64,000 nt of DNA from Gammaproteobacteria bacterium (GTDB lineage: Bacteria > Pseudomonadota > Gammaproteobacteria > Eutrophobiales > Eutrophobiaceae), in assembly GCA_965243205.1 (NCBI GenBank), contig CBDEUK010000002.1:2176001-2240000 (forward strand), given 5' to 3'. This document shows, in pieces, positions 44,518-54,419 of this stretch (positions within the stretch are counted from its first letter, which is position 1; every line of letters begins with the position of its first letter). The position numbers and the translations under genes are program-made. The notes below the pieces were generated by a model. The model had not been told where the DNA came from. It saw nothing but the letters and a program-made list of their open reading frames with translations, and searched no databases.

Positions 44518-46587
44518 ATGAACTTAATTCATAATATTGTCTTATTTTCAGGATTTCTATTAGCTTTTAATGTCGTGAATGCCACGACAATTTATAAATG
44601 TAAGAGCCCTAATGGTTCGTTGAGCTATAGTCAATCTCCATGCTCAAATGGAGATACTTTGGTTAAAAGCAAGGATCTCTCTAAGCGATTAGGTAAGAAT
44701 GCTGAGAAGGCAAAAAAACGTTTGGAAAAGATATTAAAACGAAAGAATAATAAACTTAAAAAAAGACAAGAACGAAAAGAAAAGCGATTAGCTAAAAGAG
44801 CTGAAAGAAATAATAATGATGCTAGTCTTGGTTCAAACAATTCCAATAATTTATCAAATCAATTGGCTGATGCTAGTTCAGGTTCAAGTGGAGTAAACGC
44901 TAGTAACATCTCGATAGATAATAGTAATCAAGAAGAACCTTCAGAAGAAAATTTATCTGAACCAAAACGTTCCGATGTTTCTTTACCTCTTCAAGAGGTT
45001 ACGGAAGAAGCACCAGAAGTTCCTGTAACAACGGCTGATAACCAAGACACCGAGGCTCCAAGTTCTGGTGGAGGTAGTCCTAATGCAAGCTCAACTGAAA
45101 CGACTGTAAATGTTGGCGAATTATATGGTCCAATCGAATTTAAAATAATTAGTTGGCCACTAACCAAAGCTTATCCTGGATTGGAATACAATATCCGAAT
45201 GGGTGTTATAGGTGGGCAATATCCTTATCGTTATGAATTAGAGCAGTCACCTTCAGGTATGACAATTAATAATTATACTGGTGAGATAGCTTGGACACCG
45301 GATGCATCACTTGAAGATACTAGTGCTAATGTTAGTGTTATTGTTACAGATTCAACTGATGGGAAAATTAAACAAAATTTCAATATTAATGTCACTAAAG
45401 CCGGTTTCTATTTCGTTTCACCTAATGGAAATGATTCTTCAGGAAACGGAAGTATTGGTAAGCCATGGAAAACTATGGATACAGCCATTTCTCGTGCAGG
45501 AAGCGATGGTATTGTTTATTTGCGTGGTGGTTTATATAAAGGTGCTTTTACTCTAAAGAGCTCTGATTCGAATAAATGGATTGCATATCCAGGCGAAAAA
45601 CCTGTACTAGATTTGGATTTATCTACTTTAAGACCAGCTTCTGATTTTGGCTATATAGATGGGTTAGAAATAATAAATGCTCAAAGATGGGCTTTTTGTT
45701 TTACAGGTGAAGATAATTGGATTTTTAGAAGAAATCATATGCATCATTTATATGATGATTCAGATCGTGAAAACCCATCATTTATTTTCTTTTGGAACGA
45801 AGGTGGATCTCAAAATAGAGCTCACCAAAATATCGTAATACAAGATAATCTTTTTCATGATTTATATGATGAAGATCATCATCATGGTGGTTCAGTCATT
45901 ATGTATGATGTGTATCAATCACTTTATGAAGATAATGAAGCCTATAGTATTCATGGCGCAGGCGCTAAAGATAAAGATCATGGACAGTTCAATACATTTC
46001 GCGGTAATTATTTATATAATAATTCTACAGAAGCGTTTGCGATACAAAATCAAGGGTATAGCAATAATATAGAAATTTTATATAACGTATTTCATGGAAC
46101 AGTTATGTTTGGACAAGTAGAAGCTGAATTAAGTTATGTTCTATTTAGACATAATACGCTTAAAGGACAAATCATGCATAAGAATGCTAATCCTGTTGGC
46201 ACTGATAAAACTATTGTCATAATTGATAATATTATTTCTATGAAGAAAGCGGATGTATCATTAATTGAGGACCGAGCTGATGAGTATACTTATGAGGCAA
46301 TACCTTACTTATGTTGTGACGAAGCAGATGAAAAAGGTTTCACTAGTTCCGTTCTTTATAGGAATAGAAATTTAATTGATTTTGAGACAACATACATTGC
46401 TGGTTATGGTTATGGAAAAAATAGAACATTGGCAGAATGGCAAGCTTTGGGTTTCGATATAGACAGTATCTTTGCAGATCCACAGTTCAACGATGAAGGG
46501 TCTAGAGATTTCAGACCTAAATCATCTTCACCAGCATGTGGAAAAGCTCATGATGGCGGTGATATTGGAGCCTTACCTTGTCTTTAA
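44518..46587 (+). CDS. Secreted multidomain protein: DUF4124-like, basic helix, acidic linker, Ig-like, parallel beta-helix (possible polysaccharide lyase)
   Basis: Signal peptide; IYKCKSPNGSLSYSQSPC; PSGMTIN..TGEIAWTP; FVSPNGND..GSIGKPWKT..YLRGG; DIGA terminus. Confidence 0.7.
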   Translation: MNLIHNIVLFSGFLLAFNVVNATTIYKCKSPNGSLSYSQSPCSNGDTLVKSKDLSKRLGKNAEKAKKRLEKILKRKNNKLKKRQERKEKRLAKRAERNNNDASLGSNNSNNLSNQLADASSGSSGVNASNISIDNSNQEEPSEENLSEPKRSDVSLPLQEVTEEAPEVPVTTADNQDTEAPSSGGGSPNASSTETTVNVGELYGPIEFKIISWPLTKAYPGLEYNIRMGVIGGQYPYRYELEQSPSGMTINNYTGEIAWTPDASLEDTSANVSVIVTDSTDGKIKQNFNINVTKAGFYFVSPNGNDSSGNGSIGKPWKTMDTAISRAGSDGIVYLRGGLYKGAFTLKSSDSNKWIAYPGEKPVLDLDLSTLRPASDFGYIDGLEIINAQRWAFCFTGEDNWIFRRNHMHHLYDDSDRENPSFIFFWNEGGSQNRAHQNIVIQDNLFHDLYDEDHHHGGSVIMYDVYQSLYEDNEAYSIHGAGAKDKDHGQFNTFRGNYLYNNSTEAFAIQNQGYSNNIEILYNVFHGTVMFGQVEAELSYVLFRHNTLKGQIMHKNANPVGTDKTIVIIDNIISMKKADVSLIEDRADEYTYEAIPYLCCDEADEKGFTSSVLYRNRNLIDFETTYIAGYGYGKNRTLAEWQALGFDIDSIFADPQFNDEGSRDFRPKSSSPACGKAHDGGDIGALPCL

Positions 46588-46630: not shown

Positions 46631-47758
46631 TTATGAAATTAATCGCTTAATAGATTTAAGTACGCTTTCTATTTTAAATGTGAGTTTGGGTCTTTTTAAT
46701 TTTGCCCATACTAAATCTATTTCTGAATTAGCAAACGATTTTTTATATTCTTCACCACCAGCTAAGAAATCATAAGAGTCAATATTATTTTTCCAGTAAT
46801 ATTCAATTGCAAGCCAATGAGCAATAAAGCCAGGTTTAAATTTATTATCTTCTAAGTAATTAAAACCAGATTGAATATTATAGACCTTATTTTTATAGAC
46901 TAAATTATATAAATAACCGATTGTAAAATCGCCAGCGGTTATCTTCAGAATATCTACTTGATTGTTGCTTATTTCATTTTTAATAAGATCTATATTGAAG
47001 TTTACCCAATTATTATTAGCAAAAGCTCCCGGCAATCCTTTTTTTTGCCAATATTCAGTATGGAGTTCTTTCATCCTTTCAAAATAATCTATAGCTTCTT
47101 GCTGATTACTTGCAGATGAAATAGTGATTTCATCATATAGTTTTTCTATGTACTTAATCGAACGATTAATCTGAGAACGTTTATTACTACTTAGTAAAGA
47201 CTGTTTAAGTTCTTTTGATGAATTATATTTGCCTTGCTCTAATTGAGCTTGTCTCGAAACTCCTGTATCGACAATTTCAAACTCAAGTCCGATTTTATCC
47301 TGTATTAATTTAAATTTTTCAGATTCTACAGCATTAAAAACTATTTCATCCCATGACTTATTTAATTCTAGAAAATTAGTAAATAGTTTAGTGACAGGTA
47401 ATTCATAACCAGGTGCTATTAATATTTGATTATATTCAATCACCATATTTAAACGATTTGCACAAATCTCGTTTAAAAATACTTGCCTTGAAGTTACAAA
47501 TTTATGACGTTTTTCTTTGTGTAATATTAAAAAAACTGCGGCGACTATTTTTTCATTCTCATAAACGAGAAATAAATTGGTATTAACTTTATCATGTATT
47601 AATTTTAGCCACGGTCCAATCCAAATCCAACTTACAAACACATTATTATTTTCTGGATTAACTTGATCCCAATATGCTTTAGCATCTTCATAGCTTGGAT
47701 TTTCCACTAAAACGCCAACAAGATTCTCTTGTTCAATTCTTTTATGTTCAAAATTCAT
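46631..47758 (-). CDS. GNAT acetyltransferase, CelD/BcsL-like
   Basis: FVSWIW, IEYN, YLYNL, QSG, KPG, YDFLAG..EYK. Confidence 0.82.
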   Translation of the reverse strand: MNFEHKRIEQENLVGVLVENPSYEDAKAYWDQVNPENNNVFVSWIWIGPWLKLIHDKVNTNLFLVYENEKIVAAVFLILHKEKRHKFVTSRQVFLNEICANRLNMVIEYNQILIAPGYELPVTKLFTNFLELNKSWDEIVFNAVESEKFKLIQDKIGLEFEIVDTGVSRQAQLEQGKYNSSKELKQSLLSSNKRSQINRSIKYIEKLYDEITISSASNQQEAIDYFERMKELHTEYWQKKGLPGAFANNNWVNFNIDLIKNEISNNQVDILKITAGDFTIGYLYNLVYKNKVYNIQSGFNYLEDNKFKPGFIAHWLAIEYYWKNNIDSYDFLAGGEEYKKSFANSEIDLVWAKLKRPKLTFKIESVLKSIKRLIS

Positions 47759-47770
47759 ACGTAAATAATT

Positions 47771-49177
47771 TTAAGGGATGTTTTTTACTATAGAAGGGCC
47801 AATTGTATTGCTAATAATTAAAGGTAATTTTTTCCAGGTTGAAATTAGTAATTTATATTTTGCATTGTTTGGGTTTATTTCAGGCAATTCTTCTCCTTTT
47901 GGCAGCCAATAATTCCAATAGTTTTGAAAAGGTTCAGCTCCCCATTGTTTTTTGAAATTAAAAGTACCGCTATGTTTGCTTGAACGTCCGAAATCAAAAA
48001 ACTCATAATTATTTTCAATGGCAAAATTGAGTATGTTCCAATACATGAACATATTTATACCCGAACGGTTCGTCTTTTTTAAAGCAGAGGCCCAAGGTAT
48101 CTCTAACATCTCTTTATAACCTAATAATAGGGCGCATGCTACTGCTTCTTGATTAATGTAGACAACTACAATATGAGTTTTTTCATACCATGCATCCAGA
48201 ACTCGAAAAAAAAATTCTTTGCTGTAGACAGGAGTGCCTAAATCACGCATATTGGTTGAAAAGACTTTATAAAAATCATGAATTAATTCTTGTTTGCCTA
48301 TTTTTATTTGAGGCTGTTCGATTTTACTGCGTTGAATCTGAGCACGTAATTTAGTTCCTAATTCTTTAGAAAAAGTTTCAGTAGATTTAGGTAATCTACG
48401 TATCATTGAGACTTTCTCTTGTTTGGTAATCAAGTCAGTACGTTTTTTAAGTTCTCTAATTTCAATATGCTCAAGGTTTAAGGCTTGAGCTGTTTCTATT
48501 GCAGAATCAACTAAGCGAGTTTCGATTTCCTTATTATCTGCTATTGGACCTCCATAATTAAAATATGGCATAGAAACGACAAAATCGCCAAACAGCATAC
48601 TTTTAAGCCTGATTAAAGGTAAATAACCTTTCAATTGATTACTTTGATTGATAGCTACAATCGACATATCTTCATGCCTAAATAAAGAAGATATTAATCT
48701 CCGCCAGCATGAAAAATGATATGGCGTAGAATGAGAATGGTTTTCCACATAATCATCAATAACAGAGTCTTCTATCTTATCAGCAGGGATAATATTTATA
48801 GCTGTTAAAGTATCTAATAATGAAGTGTCTTCGGCAGCAGTGAATCTTGTAGGCAAAGGATTTTTTAATTCAAGATTTTCAAATAAGTTTTTTATTAAAT
48901 TTTCTTGATTCGATTTTTTTTCTTTTAGTGTATTTAGATTCTTTTTAATCGAAGATTGTTCATCGATTATATGTTTAAAGTCTTTTCCTTCTTTTTTTAG
49001 CTTGCCTATTTTTGATGATAATATTTTTTTGTTTTCATTTAGTTTTTTAATATCATCGATAATAGTTTGTAAGATATTTAATTCTAATTCTAATGATTGA
49101 GGTATTTCGTCAAACTCTTGCCATATGACGAGAAGATTGTTGCCTATGTTTTTGAGAAGTTTTTCATGAGCCTGCAT
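47771..49177 (-). CDS. FemAB-related protein (TIGR03019-like) with N-terminal SerRS-like coiled-coil arm
   Basis: SMPYFNYGG, NMRDLGTP, FDFGRS, FKKQWG, NPNNAKY, IGPSIVKNIP; extra ~110 aa N-terminus. Confidence 0.9.
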   Translation of the reverse strand: MQAHEKLLKNIGNNLLVIWQEFDEIPQSLELELNILQTIIDDIKKLNENKKILSSKIGKLKKEGKDFKHIIDEQSSIKKNLNTLKEKKSNQENLIKNLFENLELKNPLPTRFTAAEDTSLLDTLTAINIIPADKIEDSVIDDYVENHSHSTPYHFSCWRRLISSLFRHEDMSIVAINQSNQLKGYLPLIRLKSMLFGDFVVSMPYFNYGGPIADNKEIETRLVDSAIETAQALNLEHIEIRELKKRTDLITKQEKVSMIRRLPKSTETFSKELGTKLRAQIQRSKIEQPQIKIGKQELIHDFYKVFSTNMRDLGTPVYSKEFFFRVLDAWYEKTHIVVVYINQEAVACALLLGYKEMLEIPWASALKKTNRSGINMFMYWNILNFAIENNYEFFDFGRSSKHSGTFNFKKQWGAEPFQNYWNYWLPKGEELPEINPNNAKYKLLISTWKKLPLIISNTIGPSIVKNIP

Positions 49178-50067
49178 TATGCCACTAACTCATTTATATT
49201 AATTGTCGGCCCATTAAAATTACTCAAAGCATCACTCACATAGGTGAATTGAAAATCATTTGTTAAATTATCTAATCTATGCATGCATTTTTCTAAATTG
49301 TTATAGTGGCGAAACCTCGATAATAAACTGGCGCCTTCAACACGTGGTTGCTCAGGATCCACTTCCCAAGGATGGAGATAAAAGATAGCAGGATTATTTT
49401 TGCTGGCGTTCTTAAGTAAAGTACGTGATAACCAATAAGGAAATAACCGAAAATAACCACCACCAGCAGCAGGCAATTTAAAACCCATAAATTTTGCTGT
49501 GGTTAGAGGAAGCTCTTTTATAAGTTTGCCATTGGATGTTTTTATATAGTAAGGGGTTGTGGGGCTTGTCGGTATACCATATTTATCATGATGAATAGGG
49601 AATATACTGGAATCCCATTCATAGCCTGCATCAGCCAATATATCCAGAGCCCATAGTGATTTTGGAGTGATGGAATACGAAGCTGCCCGATATCCAGTAA
49701 CAGGTTTTTGGATAATATCTTCTAATAACTGCTTAGATTTGATGGCTTCTTCTTTAAAGACTTCTTGAGTTTGTTTATAAATTATCTGATGGCTGTAACC
49801 ATGAGAAGCAATTTCATGTCCTGAGTCAGCAATAAATTTGACTAAATTTGGGTAGCGTTCGGCTACCCATCCTAGAATAAAAAAAGTGGCGGTGAGATTT
49901 TTTTTCTCAAATAAATTGAGTAGAGTTTCAGTATTATTTTCAACTCGGGTTTCATAGTTTGGCCAATCACTAGGATCAATGGCATTTTCAAAGGCAGCAA
50001 CGTGAAAATAGTCTTCTACATCTACCGTCATTGCACATGGGTGGCTAAATTGCTGTGTCTTGTTCAC
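49177..50067 (-). CDS. Polysaccharide deacetylase, XrtA-associated (TIGR03006/DUF3473-like)
   Basis: TVDVEDYFHV, ATFFILGWVAER, SHGYSH, GGGYFR, FYLHPWEVDP, FRHY. Confidence 0.93.
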   Translation of the reverse strand: MNKTQQFSHPCAMTVDVEDYFHVAAFENAIDPSDWPNYETRVENNTETLLNLFEKKNLTATFFILGWVAERYPNLVKFIADSGHEIASHGYSHQIIYKQTQEVFKEEAIKSKQLLEDIIQKPVTGYRAASYSITPKSLWALDILADAGYEWDSSIFPIHHDKYGIPTSPTTPYYIKTSNGKLIKELPLTTAKFMGFKLPAAGGGYFRLFPYWLSRTLLKNASKNNPAIFYLHPWEVDPEQPRVEGASLLSRFRHYNNLEKCMHRLDNLTNDFQFTYVSDALSNFNGPTININELVA

Positions 50068-50510: not shown

Positions 50511-51992
50511 ATGACCAATCAAGATAACAAAGATAACACAATCGAAACCAGCGTAGATACATATACCAGTAAAGCGGTTTCAGGTTTCAAATGGATGGCT
50601 TCTACTACAATAGTCTGGCAGCTGGTAAGTTGGTTTTTTACCATTTTAACGGCTCGAATTTTAGACCCAACTGACTATGGTATTTTTGCACTTGCAGAAA
50701 CTCTATTGCCTTATTTACTAATGATATCGGTATTAAGTATACCTTCTTGGTACATTCAAGCTGAAAAGGTTGATAAAAATACTGAAAAGACGATTTTTAC
50801 CTTTATGTTTTTGACAGGGTCGCTGATTGCTGCTTTTGGATATTTTATAGCGCCTTTTTTGGGAGAGTTTTATGGGAATGATGAAATAGTTCTGCCTATA
50901 AAAATATTAAGCTTGATGTTTATTTTTAATGCTTTTCATAAGCTACCGATGGCGCAATTAGAAAGAGAGTTTAAATTTAAAGCGATATCTCTAATGAAGT
51001 TGTGGGTCGGTATCAGCAGAGTAATTTTAGTCTACATATTAGCAGTTTGTGATTTTGGCTATTGGGCATTAGTCATTGGTGTGTGCTATAACCAAATCGG
51101 ATTAACTATTTGGTTGATGTGTCTCAAGGGATTACCTCCCGGTTTTGGATGGGATAAAGATTTAATCAAAAGAGTTATAAATTTTGGAACTGCTGCAACA
51201 GGAGCCGAGGTACTACATGTTATATTTTCAACGGCTGACGATGTACTGATTGGTAAATTCTTAGGAACGGAAGCTTTAGGCTATTATTTTATGGCATTTT
51301 ACATAATGGATATGCCTCTTGCTAAATTTAATGAGTTAACTAGACCAATCTTGTTTTCTTATTTTAGTAAGATCCGAGGTTACGACGATGAACTTAAAAA
51401 TATATTTCTTAATGTTACAAAATCTGGTTTATGGTTAATCTTTCCTATTTTAGCTGGCATGGCATTAGTAGCAGATGAGTTAGTGCTAATTGTCTTTGGC
51501 GAAAAATGGATGCCAATGGTAATACCTTTAGTTTTTTTAAGTCTTGCAGGTTTATTTAGGGCTTATACAGATTATATACCGCCATTATTTCTTGCTCTTG
51601 GAAGACCTCAAATGGAATTAATAATTAACGTAATTACCGCGATTATATTACCGTTGTCTTTTCTTATTGGGGTAATAAATTATGGATTGCAAGGAGTACT
51701 TTGGGCTTGGATTCTCGTGTATCCATTTGTTTGTTTTATGAGAATGAGAGGATTGAGCCAGCTGACTATTATTACTGAACTAATGTATTTGAAAAATCTT
51801 AAAATTCCTTTTGTGACAACATCTGTAATGGCAATTGGTATTTTGTCTATGGAGCTGTTAATTCCAGATAATTTAGATATCATAGTTGTTCTTTCAATGA
51901 AAGTTGTAACGGGTATTTTGGTCTATATGGCGGCAACATATTTTCTATTTAAAGAAGAAATATTGAAGGCTATTAGGTTATTACGACAATAG
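50511..51992 (+). CDS. Wzx-type oligosaccharide flippase (PST family)
   Basis: ARILDPTDYG, GYWALV, D.VLIGKFLG..ALGYY, FGEKW; multipass. Confidence 0.9.
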   Translation: MTNQDNKDNTIETSVDTYTSKAVSGFKWMASTTIVWQLVSWFFTILTARILDPTDYGIFALAETLLPYLLMISVLSIPSWYIQAEKVDKNTEKTIFTFMFLTGSLIAAFGYFIAPFLGEFYGNDEIVLPIKILSLMFIFNAFHKLPMAQLEREFKFKAISLMKLWVGISRVILVYILAVCDFGYWALVIGVCYNQIGLTIWLMCLKGLPPGFGWDKDLIKRVINFGTAATGAEVLHVIFSTADDVLIGKFLGTEALGYYFMAFYIMDMPLAKFNELTRPILFSYFSKIRGYDDELKNIFLNVTKSGLWLIFPILAGMALVADELVLIVFGEKWMPMVIPLVFLSLAGLFRAYTDYIPPLFLALGRPQMELIINVITAIILPLSFLIGVINYGLQGVLWAWILVYPFVCFMRMRGLSQLTIITELMYLKNLKIPFVTTSVMAIGILSMELLIPDNLDIIVVLSMKVVTGILVYMAATYFLFKEEILKAIRLLRQ

Positions 51993-52014: not shown

Positions 52015-53430
52015 ATGAAGTATATTGCATTACTTGCAATCAATGTGTACTTTTTTTTAGTTTTTAATAGCGGAATATGTAAACTTTATGAATATTGGAT
52101 AGATGTTCAAGGTTCCATATTATATGGAGTCTTTATATTTATATTAGCCATTTATTTATATTGTGAACGTTTAGGGAAGGTTTCTTTTAGAGAAAATAAC
52201 CAGATAACAGTTCTTGTATCAATTCTATTAATTAGTTTTTTTTATGCTGTCTCAGTATATTGCGGAATTGAACTATTTCAGTTCTTAGCGTTTTGGATTG
52301 CATTAATATTATTACAATTTGCATTATTTAATTATAAAAGCGCAGTCTATATAAGTCCTGCAATATTATTTTTAATATTCTGTTTTCCTGTTTTTGAATA
52401 TTTAAATCCTCTTTTGATTAGACTCAGTAATGATGCTGTTTCATTGTTACTTTCTTTTACCAATCTCAGTGTTAATGTAGATGGAAATATTATCTATCTT
52501 CCTTATGGTAATTTGGAAATTACTGATGGTTGTTCTGGCGTTCGTTATTTGGTCACCTCATTAGCATTGGCTTTTTTTATGGTGTTAACATCAAAAATAA
52601 ATATAAAGAAAACAGCCTTGTTAATTATTTTGGCTATAGGTTTAGGATTACTATTTAATTGGATCAGGATATTTATTTTAGTCTTAATTGCTTATGACTC
52701 TAAGATGCAGTCGGAATTGGTTTATGATCACGAAACATTTGGATGGTTATTGTATTCTGTAGTTATTGTTATTTTAGCTTATATCTATATTAAGCTAGAT
52801 TCGCTAGAAAAAATTAAAATATCAAGCTTCAATTCAAACAAAAAAATATATTGGCTAAATTTTGTAGTTTTATCCTTAGTAATAAGTTTGGGTGTTAATG
52901 TTATAAATATAATCCCACAAAATTATAATAAACCCGAGATAAAAAATATTTCCAATTGGGCATTAGATTCGTCACCTAGTCATAATGAATCTAAAGATCG
53001 TTTTAAATTAAAATATATCTATAGTGACATTGCGACTTCAAATGTTATGAGTAGTAGCCATGTAAACTGGAGATCGAAAGAAGGTGAGGATTTGGTGCCA
53101 TATATATCAGATCTTGAGTCAGATCAAAAATGGCAAAAATACATGAGAAAAAATATTTTAATTAATTCATCTACAGTTCAATATATTTTACAAAAGAATA
53201 AAATAACTAATGAAGACAGAATCAAAATAATCTTTTTTGAGATAGATAATAAAATAATCAATTCTTACCAAAAAGCAAAATTATTACAAATACCTGCTTT
53301 CTTTAGACAAAATAATTATTTTGCATATCATCAGTTAATTATTAATTGTAAATATAATGGATGTGATAAAGAAGAAGGTAAAGTTCTCAATGCAGCTCAA
53401 AACCTGTTAAAAGAACTTACAGTGTATTAA
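52015..53430 (+). CDS. Exosortase (EpsH/XrtA-like) with divergent EpsI-like C-terminal domain
   Basis: Catalytic Cys (GCSGVRYL), Arg (NWIRI), His (DHETFGW); about 8-9 TMs. Confidence 0.9.
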   Translation: MKYIALLAINVYFFLVFNSGICKLYEYWIDVQGSILYGVFIFILAIYLYCERLGKVSFRENNQITVLVSILLISFFYAVSVYCGIELFQFLAFWIALILLQFALFNYKSAVYISPAILFLIFCFPVFEYLNPLLIRLSNDAVSLLLSFTNLSVNVDGNIIYLPYGNLEITDGCSGVRYLVTSLALAFFMVLTSKINIKKTALLIILAIGLGLLFNWIRIFILVLIAYDSKMQSELVYDHETFGWLLYSVVIVILAYIYIKLDSLEKIKISSFNSNKKIYWLNFVVLSLVISLGVNVINIIPQNYNKPEIKNISNWALDSSPSHNESKDRFKLKYIYSDIATSNVMSSSHVNWRSKEGEDLVPYISDLESDQKWQKYMRKNILINSSTVQYILQKNKITNEDRIKIIFFEIDNKIINSYQKAKLLQIPAFFRQNNYFAYHQLIINCKYNGCDKEEGKVLNAAQNLLKELTVY

Positions 53431-54419
53431 TTCCAACACGATAAGCGCGCTAAAAAGTTTAGCTTTGTTGAACTAACATCTTCATGTACACCAACACGTT
53501 TAAGTTTATGTAGCACTTGGTTAGTATCGTTAATACCTGATTGAGTTGTTACCGCAGCGGAATAATTGTTTTGTACTAGCTCAGCGCTATAGTCGCTATA
53601 ATCGCCATTGGGATAGCAAAACAATGAAGCAGTATGAGAAGCTTTAGAGTTAATTTCTTTTTGACACCCCAGAACTTCATCTTCTATGAGTTCTTTTGAG
53701 ATGTTATCTTGCAAACGAATATGATGTTTTGTATGACCGCCAAAATCGATTAAACTTGAATCAAGCATATCTTGAATTTCTTGCCAGTTAAGCAGTTGTC
53801 GATTGCGTGAATCTAAATTTAATTCTGTTTCAACATTATCGAGCCAATCATTTAGTTCCGAGTCTAAGTAATGTTTTGCTTTGGCAATAACATCTGAAAT
53901 TTCAGATATATCAGAGTTTTTATTAATATCGAGTTTTTTTCTAAGATTCTCGAGATGCTCAGATTTTAGATTATGATCATCTAATTGAGTAGATATTGAC
54001 GCTAAACGATTAGGCCAAAATATTTTGTTAGTGCCCATCATACTGCTAACCAAAAATATGGTCGCTGATAACTGATGTTGTTTTAAAATAGGAAAAGCAT
54101 ATTGATAGTTATCTTGCCAGCCATCATCAAATGTGATCGCAAAATAATTACCAGGTGATAATGTATTATCATTTTTATGGTCAACCCAATCAGAGAGTTT
54201 AATGGGCTCCATGATTTCTTTTAACCATGTTAGATGGTTGCTAAATGTTTCTGGAGTGACATACATTCCAGGTTCTTCATTCAATTCTTTTGCTATTTCA
54301 GTAGGTAAAACGCGGTGATACATGAGTATCCAAAGCTTTGCTTCATTTGTTTTTTTTGTATGAGCCCCAAGTTTAGCCGCTATTGAATTGAAAATATTTT
54401 TTAAACTACGTTTTATCAT
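53427..54419 (-). CDS. Polysaccharide deacetylase (CE4)
   Basis: LMYHRV, TFDDGW, GHTKHH, FCYPNG. Confidence 0.92.
   Translation of the reverse strand: MIKRSLKNIFNSIAAKLGAHTKKTNEAKLWILMYHRVLPTEIAKELNEEPGMYVTPETFSNHLTWLKEIMEPIKLSDWVDHKNDNTLSPGNYFAITFDDGWQDNYQYAFPILKQHQLSATIFLVSSMMGTNKIFWPNRLASISTQLDDHNLKSEHLENLRKKLDINKNSDISEISDVIAKAKHYLDSELNDWLDNVETELNLDSRNRQLLNWQEIQDMLDSSLIDFGGHTKHHIRLQDNISKELIEDEVLGCQKEINSKASHTASLFCYPNGDYSDYSAELVQNNYSAAVTTQSGINDTNQVLHKLKRVGVHEDVSSTKLNFLARLSCWN

Follow-up and report, generated by a model that had tools for sequence, protein, structure and literature searches.

Described Fem-type enzymes and the gene under study

FemX, FemA, Sbb17 and MprF-type enzymes are aminoacyl-tRNA-dependent transferases. 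The PEP-CTERM FemAB proteins of family TIGR03019 (FemAB family XrtA/PEP-CTERM system-associated protein) are characteristic of loci for exosortase-A exopolysaccharide and for floc formation, and we know of no substrate for this family. Here we describe one of its members from a Gammaproteobacteria bacterium (assembly GCA_965243205.1), encoded at 47771..49177 on the minus strand of a stretch of 64,000 nucleotides (contig CBDEUK010000002.1, positions 2,176,001 to 2,240,000) that we call the window. The open reading frame (ORF) encodes a protein of 468 amino acids (aa), in which an N-terminal extension of 139 aa stands ahead of the TIGR03019 core. By its sequence, the extension is clearly homologous at the family level to the N-terminal tRNA-binding arm of seryl-tRNA synthetase (SerRS). 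We take the protein to be most likely an aminoacyl-tRNA-dependent transferase in which the SerRS-derived arm docks the tRNA and a de-N-acetylated sugar is aminoacylated, a reading that we hold with somewhat better than even confidence.

In SerRS, the arm acts across the dimer. The extension resembles the SerRS N-terminal domain (PF02403; structures 2dq3 and 1ser) in its length, the order of its helices, a gapless register over residues ~8-100, the tip motif and a basic helix 1, but it is carried by a FemX-type transferase and not by a class II synthetase core, and the SerRS residues R8, R37, Q41 and N52 are not conserved. Staphylococcus aureus FemA, FemB and FemX, and MurM, share with our protein a double-GNAT core together with a two-helix antiparallel arm that is proposed to hold tRNA (available parts of PMC4964394 and PMC8280954). 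For FemA, the available part of PMC4964394 likens the helical arm to that of SerRS and proposes that it holds glycyl-tRNA; that of PMC8280954 describes the same helical arm in S. aureus FemX and in a model of MurM. In these enzymes the arm is an insertion in the second GNAT domain (residues 246-307 in FemA) and is likened to SerRS by shape, whereas the arm described here is N-terminal and homologous in sequence, and a profile of it compared with PDB sequences does not match FemA (1lrz) or S. aureus FemX (6snr) at E<=1. FemA, FemB, FemX and MurM act on the lipid II peptide, while our gene belongs to a Gram-negative exopolysaccharide locus. FemX of W. viridescens (1ne9, 4ii9) is the best structural and sequence match of the core and has the same Phe-Lys pair, but it is armless, its acceptor is UDP-MurNAc-pentapeptide, and its identity to the core is 12-14%. 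Orf11, Sbb17 and Sba18 have a Fem-like fold (9wqx, E 4.2e-12) and an acceptor amine on an amino-sugar-containing molecule (available part of PMC12945691), but they belong to small-molecule antibiotic pathways of Streptomyces, use Gly-tRNA as donor and carry no SerRS-like arm. The armless TIGR03019 proteins (~340-365 aa) share the core family (48-54% identity for the nearest) and the type of locus and differ in having no N-terminal domain.

Already known are Fem transferases with a tRNA-holding helical arm and the Fem-like aminoacylation of an amino-sugar amine. What differs here is the N-terminal, SerRS-derived arm, its host family of PEP-CTERM FemAB proteins, and the deacetylase and glycosyltransferase fusions that coexist with it. 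We found no paper discussing the SerRS-arm/FemAB architecture in the literature searched, which lay mostly outside subscription journals and supplements; in the available part of PMC3684757, the PEP-CTERM/FemAB gene appears merely in a gene table. Precomputed Pfam annotations already show this combination of domains, which is therefore unremarked rather than hidden.

Layout of the protein and homology of the N-terminal extension

A first-pass annotation of the window, made from the letters alone, had pointed to some 110 extra residues before the FemAB-like core, in a span (48840..49177) that corresponds to aa 1-113; the peptide it quoted matches exactly within the 468-aa translation. The extra residues are real and more numerous: 139 aa precede the TIGR03019 match, which covers aa 140-468 and profile positions 3-330 of 330 with 347 bits (cut-off 260.35). 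TIGR03019 has a single copy in this genome. The start ATG overlaps by 1 nt the TAA stop of the upstream TIGR03006 deacetylase gene (TAATG), and Met1 is the sole Met up to about residue 190, so there is no alternative start ahead of the core.

The features of the protein all lie on the minus strand. The SerRS-like N-terminal domain (aa 1-103; 48869..49177), delimited with AlphaFold2 (AF2), hhalign and an arm-only profile, is predicted to begin with two short helices and to continue as a long antiparallel hairpin of helices. In the full AF2 model (predicted local distance difference test, pLDDT, 94.4; predicted template modelling score, pTM, 0.88) the helices span residues 2-11, 13-21, 27-63 and 68-103, with a hairpin of ~37 + 36 residues, and the arm modelled alone has a pLDDT of 86.2. 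Arm helix 1 (aa 27-63; 48989..49099) is, by the AF2 model and the charge of the helix, the equivalent of the tRNA-facing SerRS helix. It runs into the arm-tip motif SSKIGKLKKEGKD (aa 54-66; 48980..49018), defined by column frequencies and profile alignments, and helix 2 of the AF2 model follows (aa 68-103; 48869..48976). A linker (aa 104-139; 48761..48868), with a pLDDT of ~76-77 in the full model, holds a family-conserved L-P-x-R-F, whose local form NPLPTRF lies at 48842..48862; P109 is nearly invariant in the arm-only alignment described below. No profile alignment to SerRS covers the NPLP/linker segment, which the first-pass annotation had likened to the IPNLP of SerRS; the alignments end at about residue 100. 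The FemAB/FemX-like double-GNAT core (aa 140-468; 47774..48760) was delimited with TIGR03019 and Foldseek.

An extension is present in 113 of the 120 best homologues, and 52 of these 120 carry a precomputed PF02403 (Seryl_tRNA_N) annotation, as counted by hand from the table. When a whole-protein profile of the 120 proteins is compared with PDB sequences, the top match is Aquifex aeolicus SerRS (2dq3_A, E 8.7e-7); five further SerRS entries come next, ahead of FemX, and generic coiled coils start at E 0.044. For the arm by itself, we used an arm-only alignment (A4) of the window gene and 39 species-representative genome loci, 40 arms in all with a mean column identity of 21%. Its profile has SerRS, including T. 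thermophilus 1ser, as its top nine PDB matches (E 2.1e-13 to 8.5e-4), aligned in register with residues 8-99 on residues 8-99, and the first PDB protein other than SerRS appears only at E 0.0096. A set of 65 diverse members (A3), drawn from 50%-identity cluster representatives and scanned against Pfam, leads to the same place: PF02403 is matched by 51 of the 65 at E<=0.01 (best 2e-10), and every other coiled-coil family by just one of the 65.

Aligned by hhalign with the N-termini of 30 gammaproteobacterial SerRS, the arm alignment reaches 98.6% probability and a score of 79.5 over 94 nearly gapless columns (arm 7-100 to SerRS 7-101). With the SerRS alignment reversed the score falls to 20.6, and none of ten column shuffles exceeds 15.7. 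These are the controls that count; circular shifts simply recovered the true register and cannot serve as a null. Outside SerRS, PF02403 is rare: in 121 genomes of the same class, a tally that includes one unpublished genome (G039), it matches just five stretches at E<=0.001, this gene among them. The proposal of the first-pass annotation that the extension is a SerRS-type arm is borne out by the Pfam matches across the family, the hhalign result and the nine leading PDB matches. We conclude, on the strength of these alignments, that the domain appears to descend specifically from SerRS, along its whole length.

The arms were compared with the 30 SerRS column by column, in the numbering of the own SerRS. 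The family consensus at the tip is S-R-x-I-G-x-A-K-K-x-G-x-D, against S-K-x-I-G-x-A-K-A-x-G-E-D in SerRS. Retained in the arms are S55 (Ser in 75%), K56 (Arg or Lys in 69%), I58, G59 (65%), A61, K62 (Lys or Arg in 73%), G65 (45%), D67 (45%), L71 and the hydrophobic heptads; R51 is Lys or Arg in 63%. Of these, R51, G59 and G65 belong to the residues that are invariant in SerRS. Helix 1 carries a median net charge of +4 in the FemAB arms (n=63) and likewise in SerRS (n=30).

Distribution of the fusion

Relatives were collected with a core-only query, which avoids favouring arms, against 1.84 billion cluster representatives. At E<=0.001 there are 5723 of them, 882 at E<=1e-30. Among the best 150 of the 5723 (50%-identity cluster representatives), 64 carry the arm (arm hidden Markov model, HMM, E<1e-3) and 10 have other long N-termini. 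On a FastTree phylogeny of 148 cores, with three fragmentary rows left out, explaining where the arm occurs takes 7 changes or more; with shuffled labels the mean is 48, and none of 500 shuffles is as low. The arm is thus the mark of one large subclade, coherent for the most part, in which it has sometimes been lost or a start has been mis-called. At the level of genome loci, it is in frame at 40 of the best 80 of at least 595. A search with arm residues 1-139 alone against an index of 5.8 billion proteins has the query itself as its sole match and is uninformative on other carriers.

Arm carriers with a taxonomic name are nearly all Gammaproteobacteria (Granulosicoccaceae, Thiotrichaceae, Marinobacter, Oleiphilaceae, Cellvibrio, Spongiibacteraceae, Saccharospirillum, Aestuariirhabdus); one is a metagenome-assembled genome (MAG) labelled Verrucomicrobiaceae. 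Armless forms are found in Nitrospirota, Steroidobacteraceae, Woeseiaceae, Bacteroidota, Desulfobacterales and others, and they predominate outside Gammaproteobacteria, for instance in Nitrospirota and Bacteroidota. The fusion is widespread in marine and other Gammaproteobacteria and is not unique to this genome, just as had been suspected from the window alone, and it goes undiscussed in the literature searched.

One more of the 80 loci (L052:3931-5263, from a Pseudomonadota MAG) has the arm (HMM E 2e-13) in one ORF and the FemAB core in the ORF next to it, which brings the arm carriers to 41 of 80; either the gene is split there, or a frameshift or an error of assembly separates the two. The four other stretches outside SerRS that match PF02403 (G017:C74:77045-77302, G079:C259:35677-35916, G015:C70:23981-24175 and G004:C1:268219-268503) are sub-threshold matches in ORFs of 279, 353, 1237 and 913 aa, respectively; either the SerRS arm put to use elsewhere or ordinary coiled coils could lie behind them.

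The catalytic core, the acceptor and a proposed mechanism

A Foldseek search with the core has W. viridescens FemX at the top (E 8.6e-15, template-modelling score 0.70 normalised on the target). The ten best-ranked matches comprise FemX, Sbb17 and FemA, followed by lysyl-phosphatidylglycerol synthase/MprF entries; S. aureus FemX and FemA (6snr and 1lrz), Sba18 and alanyl-phosphatidylglycerol synthases are also among the matches. A profile of armless members finds FemX at E 1.5e-8 and aligns the family Phe-Lys pair (F408-K409 here; 47951..47956) with F304-K305 of FemX, of which Lys305 is the catalytic residue according to the available part of PMC12945691. F408-K409 is invariant in the 120 homologues and at least 90% conserved in the 65 diverse members. 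Against PF02388, the single protein scores 16.4, below the cut-off of 24. By model and alignment, the core has a FemX-like double-GNAT fold and keeps the catalytic Phe-Lys pair, in agreement with its first description as FemAB-type. Fold, catalytic pair and fused SerRS arm together point to aminoacyl-tRNA as the donor.

For the acceptor, we looked at neighbours and fusions. The first-pass annotation had tied the enzyme to the deacetylase gene that it overlaps, and the tie recurs beyond the 1-nt overlap: a deacetylase homologue lies directly upstream on the same strand at 28 of the 71 loci that had enough flank to be judged (nine of the 80 remain unjudged), made up of 9 among the 37 with an arm and 19 among the 34 without. 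There are also natural fusions of the core, to a polysaccharide deacetylase domain (P0223, P0242), to DUF3473, the C-terminal half of the XrtA deacetylase (P0187), and to GT4 glycosyltransferases (P0222, P0236, P0238, P0263). The deacetylase and glycosyltransferase fusions point to a sugar as acceptor, and there is a precedent in Orf11 and Sbb17, Fem-like enzymes that aminoacylate the amino-sugar amine of streptothrisamine (available part of PMC12945691). We would put a sugar amine as acceptor at about even chances. Inspection by eye of the N-termini of the deacetylase and the FemAB protein shows no obvious signal peptide, which fits an action in the cytoplasm, the site of aminoacyl-tRNA, on a lipid-linked unit before it is flipped.

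The fusions to GT4 glycosyltransferases run up to 1169 aa. P0254 is also among the core fusions, and in one of them the partner is an AMP-binding C-terminal domain. Short contigs may have led to wrong gene calls in some of these cases.

The mechanism that we propose is that of a cytoplasmic FemX-type aminoacyl transferase with a SerRS-derived N-terminal arm. The arm would use its tip motif and its basic helix 1 to dock the body of the charged tRNA (the elbow, perhaps also the variable arm), and the aminoacylated 3' end would enter the double-GNAT core, where the Phe408-Lys409 pair would act as Phe304-Lys305 does in FemX. The acceptor would most likely be the free amine of an amino sugar in the lipid-linked repeat unit of the exopolysaccharide; the XrtA-system deacetylase, which is translationally coupled to the enzyme, would expose this amine ahead of flipping, and the product would be an N-aminoacyl sugar. 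That the arm binds tRNA is the part of this scheme in which we have good confidence.

The fused SerRS-homologous domain is Rosetta-stone evidence that PEP-CTERM FemAB enzymes draw on the aminoacyl-tRNA pool, and the arm together with the deacetylase and glycosyltransferase fusions points to an aminoacylated sugar as the product. An open annotation thereby becomes a testable reaction, with Ser-tRNA as the leading donor candidate and the armless relatives as a natural control. The fusion would also make the SerRS arm a portable tRNA-recognition module, in use outside the synthetases.

Alternative explanations for the arm

Several observations count against the scheme, some of them against the arm being what we think it is. 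Taken as a single protein, the gene product scores 17.5 bits against PF02403 (E 0.0049; aa 39-101 on profile positions 41-103), below the gathering cut-off of 28.2 bits, and the baculovirus coiled-coil family NPV_P10 scores alike (E 0.0053); in a genome-level scan, the PF02403 score of the same protein is 23.8 bits. A structure search with the arm alone does not discriminate, with SerRS 6x94_A at Z 11.1 and unrelated hairpins at Z 10-11, and among the 50 rows shown 6x94_A has the longest aligned stretch, 108 residues. The case for homology rests for that reason on sequence profiles and not on shape: the predicted helical hairpin stands, its shape speaks neither for nor against SerRS in particular, and the match to PF02403 goes beyond a generic coiled coil for the family while the single protein stays below the gathering score. 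The near-tie of PF02403 and the baculovirus family for the single protein, in an AT-rich window (36% GC), would suit a chance resemblance between lysine-rich coiled coils, but the family profiles put SerRS first by at least seven orders of magnitude over generic coiled coils, the members that match PF02403 include GC-rich ones with Ala/Arg-rich arms, and reversed and shuffled controls fail. The PF02403 counts, the controls and the arm profile refute chance as far as sequence statistics allow, and we give it hardly any weight. A SerRS-derived hairpin could also have lost RNA binding and now serve simply as a coiled coil, either to form dimers or to attach the enzyme to the membrane or to another component of the polysaccharide machinery. 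Several residues invariant in SerRS are indeed gone, the shape of the arm is the same as that of many protein-binding hairpins, and armless relatives are common (76 of the best 150 are short armless forms). We nevertheless consider this improbable, as the arms keep the motif at their tip and a positively charged helix 1 even at a mean column identity of only ~21%, and the enzyme family to which the arm is fused uses tRNA substrates.

The harder question is which tRNA. The first-pass annotation had named Ser-tRNA(Ser) as the donor, and this is the claim that fares worst. Residues invariant in the 30 SerRS are replaced in the arms, R8 mostly by Leu, R37 by Leu or Tyr, Q41 by Lys or Leu, and N52 by Lys, Gly, Arg or Gln, Asn never being the majority residue. 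In human SerRS, R9, R44 and N58 contact the backbone of the tRNA variable arm (available part of PMC4666401). From spacing and invariance, without an alignment, we would equate human R9/R44/N58/S61 with bacterial R8/R37/N52/S55; on that mapping, the surface that reads the variable arm would be partly remodelled and the tip conserved. The loss of R8, R37 and N52 weakens the case for recognition specific to tRNA(Ser). Moreover, FemA has an arm and uses Gly-tRNA (available part of PMC4964394), so an arm by itself does not imply serine. No dedicated tRNA or second SerRS was found near the locus or in the genome, the deacetylase is non-adjacent at 28 of the 37 arm-bearing loci, and the literature searched holds no biochemical data for any TIGR03019 member. 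The arm might then be a generic dock for tRNA that contacts the elbow (T/D loops), in the way suggested for FemA, leaving the core to choose another donor such as Ala or Gly. Such docking would agree with a tip that is the best-conserved part of the arm while the residues on or before helix 1 (R8, R37, Q41, N52) are lost, with the Gly-tRNA of FemA, and with FemX of W. viridescens, which has no arm and selects Ala through its core and the acceptor stem (available parts of PMC2175331 and PMC12945691). Against it stand the descent of the domain specifically from SerRS, aligned over its whole length, the Ser equivalent to S55 in 75% of the arms, and a helix 1 that is still basic; nothing favours any other amino acid. 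We regard generic docking with a different donor as unlikely, though the most serious of the alternatives. Ser-tRNA(Ser) is still the leading candidate, given that SerRS ancestry extends over the entire domain, and we take it tentatively, at slightly less than even chances, as the single most likely donor. It is possible, if rather doubtful, that the XrtA/PEP-CTERM exopolysaccharides of many marine Gammaproteobacteria are N-serylated by an arm-bearing FemAB protein that picks Ser-tRNA(Ser) and acts on a hexosamine amine freed by the deacetylase on the lipid-linked repeat unit. This would amount to tRNA-dependent aminoacylation of a polysaccharide, a reaction class not known from Gram-negative exopolysaccharides, and to a second, independent acquisition of a helical tRNA arm by a Fem enzyme.

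Neighbouring genes and other features of the window

Judged by their profile matches, the 25 kb around the FemAB gene form a classical exopolysaccharide locus of the XrtA/PEP-CTERM type. Neighbours above their cut-offs match TIGR03006, TIGR03015, TIGR03013, TIGR03007, TIGR03027, TIGR03016 and, for the exosortase, TIGR02602; a TIGR03018 neighbour scores 230.2 bits, marginally below the cut-off of 230.65. Glycosyltransferases and an asparagine-synthase-like amidotransferase are also present. Directly upstream of the FemAB gene, at 49177..50067 on the minus strand, is the gene for the polysaccharide deacetylase of the XrtA system, which reaches 397.5 bits with TIGR03006 (cut-off 276.2). A MOP/Wzx-type flippase gene is divergently transcribed at 50511..51992 on the plus strand (NF007773, E 1.1e-59, 202.8 bits, below the cut-off of 273), and at 52015..53430 on the plus strand is the gene for an XrtA-like exosortase of 471 aa (PF09721; TIGR02602 with 109.1 bits, above the cut-off of 105.55). 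Against the XrtA-specific TIGR03109, the exosortase scores 136.8 bits, below the cut-off of 208. The profiles span just its residues ~6-260, and the C-terminal ~210 residues lie outside them. At the edge of the locus, 53427..54419 on the minus strand encodes a second polysaccharide deacetylase (PF01522, with a PgaB-like N-terminal match), so that two deacetylases are available to the pathway.

Twelve nucleotides downstream of the FemAB gene, in the same operon, a second gene with a PF13480 (FemAB-like GNAT) match (E 1.3e-19) lies at 46631..47758 on the minus strand and encodes 375 aa. It has no NCBIfam match and is not close to the TIGR03019 core (hhalign against the core profile, 7.5% probability). 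Its homologues are found near the FemAB gene at loci L008, L016, L017, L024, L046, L047, L062 and L075, and its product may add another acyl or aminoacyl group. Also inside the exopolysaccharide locus, 44518..46587 on the plus strand encodes a protein of 689 aa that has no NCBIfam match. It has an N-terminal DUF4124, low-complexity sequence that is first Lys-rich and then Ser/Asn-rich, a He_PIG Ig-like domain and, towards the C-terminus, a long region outside the assigned families. The protein may be secreted and act on polysaccharide, or be a surface protein. Elsewhere in the window, 13019..13198 on the plus strand holds tRNA-Ile(GAT) and tRNA-Ala(TGC), 28 nt apart. Such a pair is the usual spacer of an rRNA operon, and an rRNA operon probably lies within the window.

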